Shown piece after piece: positions 21,001-24,000 of a stretch of 64,000 nt of DNA. The stretch is taken from assembly GCF_057098645.1 (NCBI RefSeq), contig NZ_CM169472.1. The stretch is one strand, 5' to 3'. Position numbers: made by a program. Position 1 is the first letter of the stretch; each line of letters begins with the position of its first letter.

Positions 21001-24000
21001 GAAGCTGTCAAAGGAAAAATGCGACCGGGTTAATGCCATCGAACGTGACAAGGCGCTGGCATGGGTGGAGAAAAACATCAAAGTGCCGCTGACCGAACCC
21101 CAGAAAGCGGGGATCGCGTCATTCTGTCCGTATAACATTGGCCCCGGTAAGTGTTTCCCGTCGACGTTTTATAAACGAATTAATGCAGGTGATCGAAAAG
21201 GTGCCTGTGAGGCGATTCGCTGGTGGATTAAGGACGGTGGCAGAGACTGCCGTATCCGCTCAAATAATTGCTACGGTCAGGTATCCCGGCGAGATCAGGA
21301 AAGTGCGCTGGCGTGCTGGGGTATCGACAGATAAGCAGAATATTTTGCTTAAAAATGACGTTGGCCAACGCGGGCAGATAACACGAAATCCTGCGAACTG
21401 GCAAAACCCAAGTGAATAAAAGTAAAAACCCCGTTTGTTGGTTGCAAACGGGGTTTTATGTTTATGGCAGTAAGCTATGGGAGGCTGCCTTGATTGATTT
21501 TAGCAAACTGATTAGGGAGTTGCGACTCATGATTAGTCAATTACCAAACTGGAAATTTTTGCTGGTCTGGAGCATCCCTTTTTTATGGGTAGTATCCCAG
21601 TGAATTGTGGCAATTAAGGGGTAGCTATGTCAGACAAACTCATAATGCTGGCGAAGATCCTCTGTGTAATCGTCGGCATTTCATTTTCACTAATGCTGGT
21701 TGCTCTTTTTCTTTCCATGGGCTGGATGATGTTGTCTTCGTCGGGGCTGCTGGGGTGAGCATAAACCGAATGCTTTCCGCGTTTACCGTTATTCTGCTGG
21801 TGGTCTGTGGTGCGCTTAGTCTGGGGCTGAATCATTACCGCGATAACGCCATCACCTACAAAGCGCAGCGCGATAAAAAAGCCAGTGAGCTGGATCTGGC
21901 AAACGCAACCATTACTGATATGCAGGTGCGCCAGCGCGATGTTGCTGCGCTCGATGCAAAATACTCGAGGGAATTAGCCGATGCGAGAGCTGAAAATGAA
22001 ACTCTGCGTGCTGATGTTGCCGCTGGTCGTAAGCGCCTGCGGATCAACGCCACCTGCCCCGGTACCGTGCGTGAAGCCACCGGCACCTCCGGCGTGGGCA
22101 ATGATGCCGCCGTCGAACTCTCTCCGGTTGCTGGACGAAACGTTCTCGGTATCAGAGACGGAATCATCAGCGACCAGGCAGCATTGAGAATGCTTCAGGA
22201 ATATATCCGCACTCAGTGTATTAACTAGTATTTTTGTTATTCGGAGAATGCATGAAGAAATTATTGGTAACCGTAAAGCCTTTTCAGGGAACAATTCCGT
22301 TCCGTATTTTGCAGCGTGGTCGTGTTCTTGTTGAAGGTTCGTTCAGTGGTAAATGTACGCAATTACACTCCCGGACCTTTCAGGTGAATGCCACGAATGA
22401 AGAGCTAACCGTTGAGTGTACGATGAATGCCGCTAAATGCCGCATGGTATCCGCTGCATTACAGCCAGTGTGTTGAGCGACCTTATTATTCATGCGCGGT
22501 ATTGTCGCCGTATTCCTGCATTAACAGAGACCGCAGCCCGACCGGGAGAATCCTCTGCGCGAGTGTGCGGGGATAATCAAAAACGATACACACCGGGGTT
22601 TACCGCGTTAACGGAGCGCGGCGTTGTCCCCTCATGGTCGCTGGTCCGGTGCGATGGTGGAAGAAGCCGGATGTTTATCACTATTAATTGATAACACAGA
22701 AATGGATTCATTGATTTTCAGCACGTTTTTGTATTCGTATTATTGAACATCTGTTTATTTTACTTTTAACATATTGATAATAAAAAGAGCTGTAAATCTT
22801 TAGATGAGTCGATTTTGTCCGGGGAAGTTCAAATGGATTTTATGCTGACGGTTTCTGGTGTGGTTATCCTGTCCATTGCTTATACTGCAGATAAATATGG
22901 CTGCCATTTGTTATCACGTATTGGCGCTTATTGCTCGTTGATGCTGATTTTCTCGTCGCTTTTTTTTGAGTAAGTTATATTAATTATAACAAATAATTTT
23001 CTGTGTTTTTTCAGGCTATCCCGTCAGACGGGAAGCCTGTACTGCCGGGGGACGAATGGAAAACTGATGTGTCCGGTAACTGTGTGTTCTGTGAACACCA
23101 TGTTACTTAATTATGTAATTCATACCCGAACGCTCTGTTGACAGCCTTCTTCTGCAGGCTTCAATAACCCACGCTGAAAAGTTACCGGAACCTTTATGTT
23201 CAAGGGCGATATTGATCTGTTCAATCATGTGATTGGGGAAACGGATATTGCGGATTGTGGTTCTGCGGGTCCGGTTTTTCGATGACATTTTCTTTCCTCT
23301 GGTGACAAGCTATATGGAGAGGATTTTACATGGCTGTGCTTCGTACGTTACCGGGCAGAATCAAAACTCTGAACACCCGGCGGGTGAATGTCCTGAAGGG
23401 TGAACAGCGTCGGGTCAGTGGTAGTGCCCGGGTTTCCCTCAAGCGTCGTATCTGGCTGAGGGATGCCGGACAGTGCTGTCTCTGTGGGCGTGTGGTTGAC
23501 CTTTGTGACAGTGAACTTGAGCACCGCATTGCACTTCAGTTCGGTGGTGGTAATGAGGAGACGAATCTCTGGACGCTCTGTACCGAATGCCATCGACAAA
23601 AGTCTGCTCGTGAAGCGGCGAGTGGTATGCCAGACCCGACGCTGCCGGAGGTGTCCGGAGGTAGTGGCAGAGCGGACGACATCATCGGACTGTAACCCGA
23701 CCCGGGGGGGTATCATCCGGCGTAAAAAAAGATCGCTTTGGACACCGCGCCCCCTCTCATGCAGAGAAAAAATCCCGTTTCAGGCCAGTTAACATGTTAA
23801 CTGGCTGTTCGGCCTTTTTTCTGTTTTTATCTTTATTATTCAGTTTGTTGTGCGAAAAAAATGTTAACAGGCTTTTTCAGCAAATGTTAACCAGGCAGCA
23901 GTTAACATTTGCGGCATGAGACGCCGGGAAAAATGGGCTGAACCATACCCGGCTGAGTGCGTTCTGGACCCGGGAGGAGGCTGTGCTGACAACGCAAAAA

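Follow-up and report, generated by a model that had tools for sequence, protein, structure and literature searches.

Intrinsic terminators occur within lambdoid late operons, according to the lambda tR′ paradigm, and they are overridden by Q antitermination, in which the Q-modified RNA polymerase (RNAP) reads through them. In phage P2, the membrane-protein gene lysA lies between the endolysin gene K and the spanin genes lysB/lysC, and an effect on lysis timing has been reported for it. Here we analysed the 435-bp gap (21335-21769) between the genes for the endolysin R and the i-spanin Rz of an Escherichia coli lambdoid prophage, whose late region is contained in a 64,000-nucleotide stretch of contig NZ_CM169472.1 (RefSeq assembly GCF_057098645.1), hereafter called the window. 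We consider it fairly probable that this gap is a recombination-mosaic cargo slot, composed of an R trailer with a sense-strand terminator and two small genes, ORF-B′ and ORF43, for late-expressed, terminator-gated accessory membrane proteins.

The hairpin of the gap resembles terminators of the tR′ type in being a GC-rich sense-strand stem with a U-tract in a late operon, and its structure is kept by compensatory changes. In contrast with tR′, it has its place between R and Rz instead of close behind pR′, and it accompanies the small-ORF/Rz module downstream of it, not a promoter. Among the upstream ORFs of at least 90 residues in the window, none was recognised as a Q gene. Like P2 lysA, the small genes code for predicted membrane proteins and lie between endolysin and spanin genes, but their products are far smaller (37-45 residues, with a single transmembrane (TM) segment) and similar to nothing annotated. 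Lambdoid phages also have morons (as defined by Juhala/Hendrix, cited in PMC4104026), and like these the gap insert is additional DNA flanked by conserved late genes. Its boundaries are mosaic, and other cargoes, such as the antirepressor gene of Shiga toxin (Stx) phages, take its place in the slot. However, no promoter of its own was detected, its terminator is on the 5′ side, and its genes adjoin Rz as tightly as if translation were coupled. Lastly, the gap peptides share their size, single hydrophobic helix and prophage location with type I toxins (Hok, Ldr, TisB) but have no Pfam similarity to them, no Rfam match and no + strand promoter of their own. In another part of the window there is a hok/sok locus. 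The whole is a moron-like mosaic insert, a generally known kind, in which the terminator is well supported and the conserved small-gene family had been overlooked.

The gap starts after R, a signal-arrest-release (SAR)-type endolysin gene (20801..21334, + strand; PF00959, E=3.2e-24; phrog_7; named 'lysozyme' in RefSeq), and ends at Rz (21770..22228, +; PF03245, E=9e-40), the ATG of which is at 21770, not 21771. An earlier note on this DNA had reported the 435-bp distance, which is confirmed, and had taken contiguity of R and Rz as the norm. The latter holds for the lambda-like K-12 prophages DLP12 and Qin, which are devoid of the gap module. As R overlaps Rz in both, the gap departs from what is the simplest layout. 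In prophages of enterohaemorrhagic E. coli (EHEC) O26, O145 and O121 genomes, the R-to-Rz segment has counterparts of 99.9% identity.

Two small genes of conserved phage families

The earlier note saw only weak small ORFs in the gap. Our analyses revealed instead that two small ORFs with good Shine-Dalgarno (SD) sequences belong to conserved phage families. Its suggestion that a small gene might be found there is supported: ORF-B′ is usually unannotated, and RefSeq has ORF43 only as a 'hypothetical protein' (WP_001280927.1).

ORF-B′ (21490..21603, +) has a TTG start and codes for 37 residues. Its leader (21466..21489, +), as read from the sequence, carries the SD GGGAGG (21479-21484) 5 nt before the TTG. 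It matches phrog_6632 with E=3.1e-11 and represents a truncated allele of the ORF-B family, the canonical members of which match the same profile with E=3.9e-23. We collected 82 loci via the ORF-B protein family, and this sample also served for the hairpin comparisons below. The canonical ORF-B is 45 residues long with a C-terminal IRWW, has a strong SD and is GTG-initiated in 77 of the 82 loci; a leader equivalent to that of the window, with an SD and a GTG start, was likewise found in 77. The Rz ATG is located one base past the ORF-B stop in 52 loci. In this family, the ratio of non-synonymous to synonymous polymorphism (pN/pS) is 0.27 in frame, versus 0.81 and 2.16 off frame, and the three codon positions have 27, 13 and 33 variable sites. 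The substitution pattern is a classical coding signature, and it shows these predicted genes to be protein-coding and under purifying selection.

The predicted ORF-B proteins are composed of a conserved, amphipathic N-terminal segment of ~22 residues followed by one TM helix. The N-terminal motif SKLIRE-R-M-E-LP-W-K/R-F is conserved from E. coli to Pseudomonas phages, while the TM tail is variable; in the form SKLIRE..R.M.E.LP.W[KR]F, the motif is found at residues 5-23 of ORF-B′. Homologs were identified in Salmonella, Trabulsiella, an Actinobacillus phage and Pseudomonas phages. Nevertheless, ORF-B matched only 42 clusters at 50% identity among 1.84 billion representatives, and on that count the family is either narrow or under-called by gene finders. 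ORF-B genes adjoin at least five endolysin types, namely SAR lysozymes, a soluble GH24 lysozyme, an M15 peptidase and two other endolysins that resemble muramidases. The same layout is present but unannotated in H-19B (AF034975 17551-17685) and in SPN3UB, and ORF-B is also unannotated in dozens of Stx phage records.

The allele of the window is shorter than its relatives. Its in-frame homology passes the TGA at 21601-21603 and continues to the TAG at 21622-21624, and tblastn searches with family members yielded alignments over 21490-21618, across the stop. Other alleles have TTA in place of the TGA codon and code for 44 residues. The nonsense codon deletes the last seven residues of the membrane segment, so that the protein stops at 37 residues, short of the C-terminal TM helix of full-length members (~45 residues). 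Its best 19-residue hydropathy is 1.21, versus 2.19 for the full allele and 2.19-2.42 for full-length members. The C-terminus of ORF-B′ is ORF60-like. An ORF of 63 residues with a GTG start (21412-21603), which is annotated in one RefSeq genome, was rejected as a real gene, because it spans the hairpin, only its C-terminal 32 residues (28-59) match phrog_6632, and the start position of the family corresponds to the TTG at 21490.

ORF43 (21627..21758, +), a predicted single-pass membrane protein of 43 residues, matches phrog_4906 with E=3.1e-21 over residues 1-43. Its SD, AAGGGG, is at 21616-21621, and its stop codon precedes the Rz ATG by 11 nt. It has a single hydrophobic helix, with a Kyte-Doolittle hydropathy of 2.89 over residues 11-29. 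The ORF is intact in 167 of 167 loci. We classified the architectures of 161 loci from IMG/VR and reference genomes that had been selected for ORF43: R-ant-ORF43-Rz (73 loci), R-ORF60-ORF43-Rz (71 loci), R-ORF-B′-ORF43-Rz as in the window (5 loci) and architectures with extra small ORFs (2 loci). ORF43 keeps its SD and start behind the three unrelated cargoes ant, ORF60 and ORF-B′. In nearly all these loci it lies directly 5′ of Rz, the exceptions being two with intervening small ORFs and one that is cut off before Rz. In Sp10 of strain Sakai, ORF43 (ECs_1966) is found between ant, with which it has a TGATG overlap, and Rz, and it ends 7 nt before the latter.

Homologs of ORF43 form 119 protein clusters, all from E. 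coli and mostly of 43 residues, in which apolar residues are replaced by apolar ones. Its pN/pS is 0.47 in frame, compared with 0.85 and 1.06 off frame, and in a neutral simulation the reading frame and the observed hydrophobicity were both retained in 2.3% of trials. These comparisons show that ORF43 is conserved in frame, length and position as a predicted gene. It is probably coding, with moderate support.

No relatives of any of the small ORFs were found in Pfam, NCBIfam, PADLOC and Protein Data Bank sequence searches. ORF43 and ORF-B are unrelated according to hhalign, and BLASTP produced no alignments between ORF43 and ORF60. The ORFs have direct profile matches in PHROG, with E-values of 1e-11 to 1e-42, to phrog_6632 (ORF-B), phrog_4906 (ORF43) and phrog_1115/4493/3246 (ORF60/ORF28). 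These families carry no functional label, and ORF-B′ of the window differs from its own family by its truncation, its TTG start and its ORF60-like C-terminus. Our literature searches with these locus tags and PHROG identifiers returned nothing.

A conserved terminator hairpin

The stem-loop with a T-run that the earlier note described between R and Rz is confirmed as a terminator-like element, both by a terminator scan and by compensatory variants in related loci. It extends over 21425..21465 (+), with the stem at 21425-21457, the GC core at 21429-21453, the loop at 21439-21443 and the U-rich tail, TTTTATGTTTAT, at 21454-21465. In the core, C21429-G21437 is paired with C21445-G21453, and pairs between A21425-28 and T21454-57 lengthen the stem. 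With a 14-bp stem including six GC pairs, a 5-nt loop and the U-tract, the hairpin has the composition of an intrinsic terminator. It has a free energy of about -21.5 to -22.8 kcal/mol, and the + strand of 21335-21640 folds better than shuffled sequences (z=-3.1). In the scan, the hairpin was called in either orientation (14 pairs on the + strand, 13 on the -).

In 77 of the 82 ORF-B loci, a GC-rich hairpin with a U-tract is present 45-50 nt 5′ of the small ORF, whatever gene precedes it. The stems at this position come in at least 22 distinct variants, in which changes on one side are compensated on the other, as in GTTTG/CAAAC, GATTG/CAGTC, AACTG/CAGTT and GAGTTG/CAGCTC. The hairpin is more than a chance occurrence. 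RNAalifold, applied to a MAFFT alignment, yielded 13 pairs, four of them with double changes, although the inner stem was misaligned owing to variable loop lengths. The + strand stem is the more stable one in 37 of 43 unique variants, with means of -21.1 and -17.6 kcal/mol (Wilcoxon p=3.6e-7, which is indicative only as the stem variants are related). This bias arises because many variants use G-U pairs, which are C-A mismatches on the other strand. Among relatives, structure is thus conserved rather than sequence, as expected for an intrinsic terminator, and the substitution pattern shows selection for the predicted terminator structure on the sense strand.

The R trailer (21335..21424, +) separates R from this hairpin and is found immediately 3′ of R in >200 phage records. 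In an alignment of 44 unique gaps, it comprises a hypervariable block of ~20 nt just after R (~21356-21376), with a site diversity of 0.28, followed by a conserved block (~21377-21424), with a site diversity of 0.086 versus 0.19 at the third codon positions of R. At 0.08-0.09, the diversity of the conserved block and of the ORF-B′ leader is about half that of R synonymous sites (0.19). A perfect 12-bp palindrome, CGTTGGCCAACG, is present at 21359-21370 inside the hypervariable block. Salmonella phage SPN3UB has another perfect palindrome, CGTGGCGCCACG, in the same place (locus L170, ~1824-1835), and the remaining alleles are non-palindromic at this site. In SPN3UB, a hydrophobic, in-frame-shifted ORF ending with …AAAVAISGNDGWGWLIFAGIIIL before its stop codon follows the annotated lysozyme stop (L170, 1700-1802). 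It extends to where homology with the E. coli R trailer starts and may reflect an annotation or frameshift issue in that record.

A mosaic slot with alternative cargoes

Megablast comparisons with phage records divided the gap into three modules. Module 1 (21335-21463), made up of the R trailer and hairpin, follows R in >200 records, including those of Stx2a phages and H-19B. Module 2 (21464-21547) is rare in phage records, with four full-length matches, and common in E. coli genomes: it is present in 703 of 5,426 complete genomes, and in 686 of the records with a match the identity reaches 99% or more. Module 3 (21548-21770) precedes Rz even in phages that have the antirepressor gene in the slot. 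With the R-to-Rz segment as query, matching sequence was found in 4,254 genomes, 1,140 of which contain most of the query.

The gap is inserted between genes that are adjacent in relatives, as indicated by the R/Rz overlap of DLP12 and Qin and by the alternative cargoes, which is one hallmark of morons. Another, a σ70 promoter on the 5′ side and a terminator on the 3′ side, was not found: the terminator is upstream, and Rz follows directly downstream. In one genome, four small ORFs are present between R and Rz. In some prophages, two to four small TM ORFs form tandem arrays that precede Rz or tail genes (L169, 1452-2015; L205, 2001-2281). As N- and C-terminal halves are mixed in these arrays, with tails of the IRWW and …LIxAIK types, domain shuffling among the predicted TM micro-genes is suggested.

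Proposed mode of expression

According to the reading that we favour, ORF-B′ and ORF43 would have no promoter of their own and would be made only when RNAP passes the hairpin. Being promoterless and directly behind a terminator, they could be expressed only by a terminator-resistant polymerase, and Q-type antitermination would supply this read-through in the late operon. The hairpin would serve as a lock, so that in the lysogen the small genes, Rz/Rz1 and all that lies further downstream stay silent. It is also plausible that the terminator attenuates Rz. After induction, the small ORFs would be translated in tandem with Rz, given that their stops are 1-11 nt from the next start. The recurrence of the terminator together with a non-AUG start suggests selection for tight silencing and low dosage, which would fit with a membrane-active product. 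What such proteins might do is a guess from their position and architecture, the most economical one being that they could modulate the lysis step, for example by acting on membrane energisation or holin timing, or via the spanin. Of these features it is the adjacency to Rz that speaks for it.

A bolder version appears doubtful to us. The hairpin, short leader and non-AUG membrane-protein gene would then constitute an unrecognised mobile late-operon cassette, and the ORF-B family would represent, with ORF43, a new class of lysis-step regulators acting on or together with Rz/Rz1, both of them present without annotation in classical Stx phages like H-19B. In such a cassette, the terminator may tie a potentially membrane-active peptide strictly to antitermination, with the SKLIRE motif in the cytoplasm and the TM segment as an anchor.

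Several observations weigh against the proposal of terminator-gated accessory genes. Terminator activity, read-through and translation are all features that we infer from sequence. The coding signature of ORF43 is modest, with 16, 12 and 19 variable sites at the three codon positions, and one pairwise ratio of non-synonymous to synonymous substitution rates (dN/dS) is >1. The ORF-B′ allele of the window is probably defective. Furthermore, 28 of the 82 ORF-B loci have no Rz beside them and belong to clusters of baseplate or minor-tail genes. ORF-B is thus not lysis-specific, and its presence there weakens any spanin-specific role. Sakai Sp10, the antirepressor variant, is devoid of the hairpin, so that Rz expression does not strictly require it. 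Of the ORFs of at least 90 residues between the replication and late genes (12200-17700), none was recognised as a Q-family antiterminator, and an IS3-family element (15167-16380, -) with an ALIL frameshift RNA is found at the expected nin/Q position. Read-through in this prophage may depend on Q supplied in trans, or there may be none. The prophage may be defective. Together with the nonsense ORF-B′ allele, the lack of a recognised Q gene and the IS3 element at the nin/Q position suggest that the prophage copy may be decaying.

Alternative explanations

The gap might be non-coding, i.e. a 3′ untranslated region (UTR) of R with a terminator, followed by a spacer. Conservation of the ORFs would then reflect recent shared ancestry or a constraint at the RNA level, for instance on the accessibility of the Rz ribosome-binding site. 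The variable-site counts of ORF43 given above are compatible with this, and in the closely related ORF60-type subset its codon positions are flat (0.069, 0.079 and 0.066). The region is unannotated in many records, and the near identity of the middle module of the window in the 686 matching records makes it no test in itself. However, the classical coding signature of ORF-B is difficult to reconcile with a spacer, and so is the fact that phages of E. coli, Salmonella, Actinobacillus and Pseudomonas have kept the length, start and SD of the gene. ORF43 likewise keeps its start, SD, exact length and hydrophobicity whichever of the three cargoes precedes it. The earlier note had considered that related phages might have a simple non-coding linker with the same spacing. 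This was not seen, as the cargo varies between ORF60, ORF-B and the antirepressor gene. We regard a non-coding gap as improbable.

The hairpin could also be the 3′ end of a regulatory small RNA (sRNA); the earlier note had suggested an sRNA in the gap. This could be a sense sRNA from the R 3′ UTR (21377-21457), where the block 5′ of the hairpin shows about twice the conservation of R synonymous sites. Alternatively, an antisense RNA starting in ORF-B′/ORF43 could end at the - strand hairpin and, with the hydrophobic peptide, make up a pair resembling type I toxin-antitoxin systems. The A- and T-rich flanks of the hairpin could allow termination in both directions, and synonymous diversity is lower in the N-terminal half of ORF-B (0.38 versus 0.62). 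Nevertheless, the G-U pairs favour the + strand stem, which argues against selection for - strand termination, and Pfam similarity to known type I toxins was absent at E-values up to 10. There is a consensus-level match to a - strand promoter at 21633..21604, but promoter-like matches in the region are no more common than in shuffled sequences (5 versus 6.2).

The prophage region is rich in sRNAs (AgvB, STnc100, PasC, sok), but we found no known one in the gap. No Rfam family was detected within 21335-21770 in a scan of the whole window at gathering thresholds, nor in the gap in a scan of 19000-24000 at E-values up to 1. A VR-RNA match in the latter was spurious (20 bits, versus a gathering score of 100). 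Similarly, none of the known Hfq-binding prophage sRNAs (AgvB, AsxR, STnc100, Pas, EcOnc) has a match or mapped peak in 21335-21770. Those of EHEC and enteropathogenic E. coli that can be mapped, from Hfq cross-linking and cDNA analysis (Hfq-CRAC) peaks and from RNA interaction by ligation and sequencing (RIL-seq), fall elsewhere. EcOnc11 and EcOnc12, which are ~5 kb from AgvB-type sRNAs (Tree et al. 2014, Table S2), map 3′ of Rz at ~22696-22744 on the - strand once the genome-version offset is corrected. The Pas sRNAs (Pearl Mizrahi 2021; Zhu, Shabalina and Storz 2026), PasA/C included, are located between the esterase and holin genes. An sRNA as the origin of the hairpin appears unlikely to us.

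The small proteins could be morons that benefit the lysogen, for example by superinfection exclusion like HK97 gp15, rather than lysis factors. Homologs of ORF-B do occupy moron positions among tail or baseplate genes in Pseudomonas, Actinobacillus and E. coli phages, and the R-Rz slot also takes an antirepressor gene. The canonical promoter-gene-terminator layout was not seen here, though, with the terminator upstream and no promoter found, and PADLOC yielded no matches. The stop-to-start distances of 1-11 nt towards Rz suggest co-expression with a late lysis gene. We hold this explanation to be rather unlikely.

Finally, the earlier note envisaged separate transcription of Rz/Rz1. The hairpin would then end the S-R transcript, and a promoter in the gap would drive the small ORFs and Rz/Rz1. 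This is very improbable: many phages do have a terminator directly 5′ of the ORF-B/Rz module, irrespective of which gene comes before, but no + strand σ70-like site was found between the hairpin and Rz (21458-21770) in a scan restricted to the σ70 consensus, and the ~45 nt from the hairpin to the first start in relatives are filled by the U-tract, a mini-hairpin and the SD.

Genetic environment of the gap

In the late region, the order is SASA esterase (17764-19614), holin S of the phage-21 class II type (19907-20113), a minus-strand ORF (20369-20683, -; phrog_1853, which carries no functional label), R, the gap, Rz/Rz1 and the terminase genes. The o-spanin Rz1 is embedded in Rz (ORF 21981-22187, +, with a probable start at 21996; PF06085, E=7e-21). 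Holin S and R are also separated, by 687 bp (20114-20800) that contain the minus-strand ORF. Inserts are present at every junction of the lysis cassette of the window.

The - strand segment at ~22696-22744 is homologous to the strong Hfq-CRAC peaks EcOnc11/12 of O157 Sakai and lies 3′ of a minus-strand gene of the YlcI/YnfO family (23103-23288). An Hfq-dependent sRNA gene of the PasC type is found at 19622-19700 (-), with an exact match to the PasC northern probe at 19644-19668 and a - strand terminator at 19651..19622. A convergent sRNA pair, STnc100 (17365-17554, +) and AgvB (17555-17616, -), precedes the esterase gene, both above the Rfam gathering thresholds. Further Rfam matches in the window, at 5300-5774 (-), 14497-14667 (+) and 39146-39212 (-), correspond to C4 antisense RNA, IsrK and DicF (clustered), sok and sar RNA.

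Implications for lambdoid lysis cassettes

The lysis cassettes of Stx and other lambdoid phages are treated as S-R-Rz/Rz1. Our analyses show one to four extra genes for tiny predicted membrane proteins between R and Rz, behind a conserved terminator, in a large proportion of the prophages of E. coli and Salmonella. The ORF-B gene is absent from almost all phage annotations in GenBank, including those of H-19B and SPN3UB. Should the peptides have no effect on lysis, their identification would still represent a useful correction of annotations and document a recombination slot. If they do affect lysis timing or spanin action, they would influence the timing of the burst and, in Stx phages, the release of toxin.

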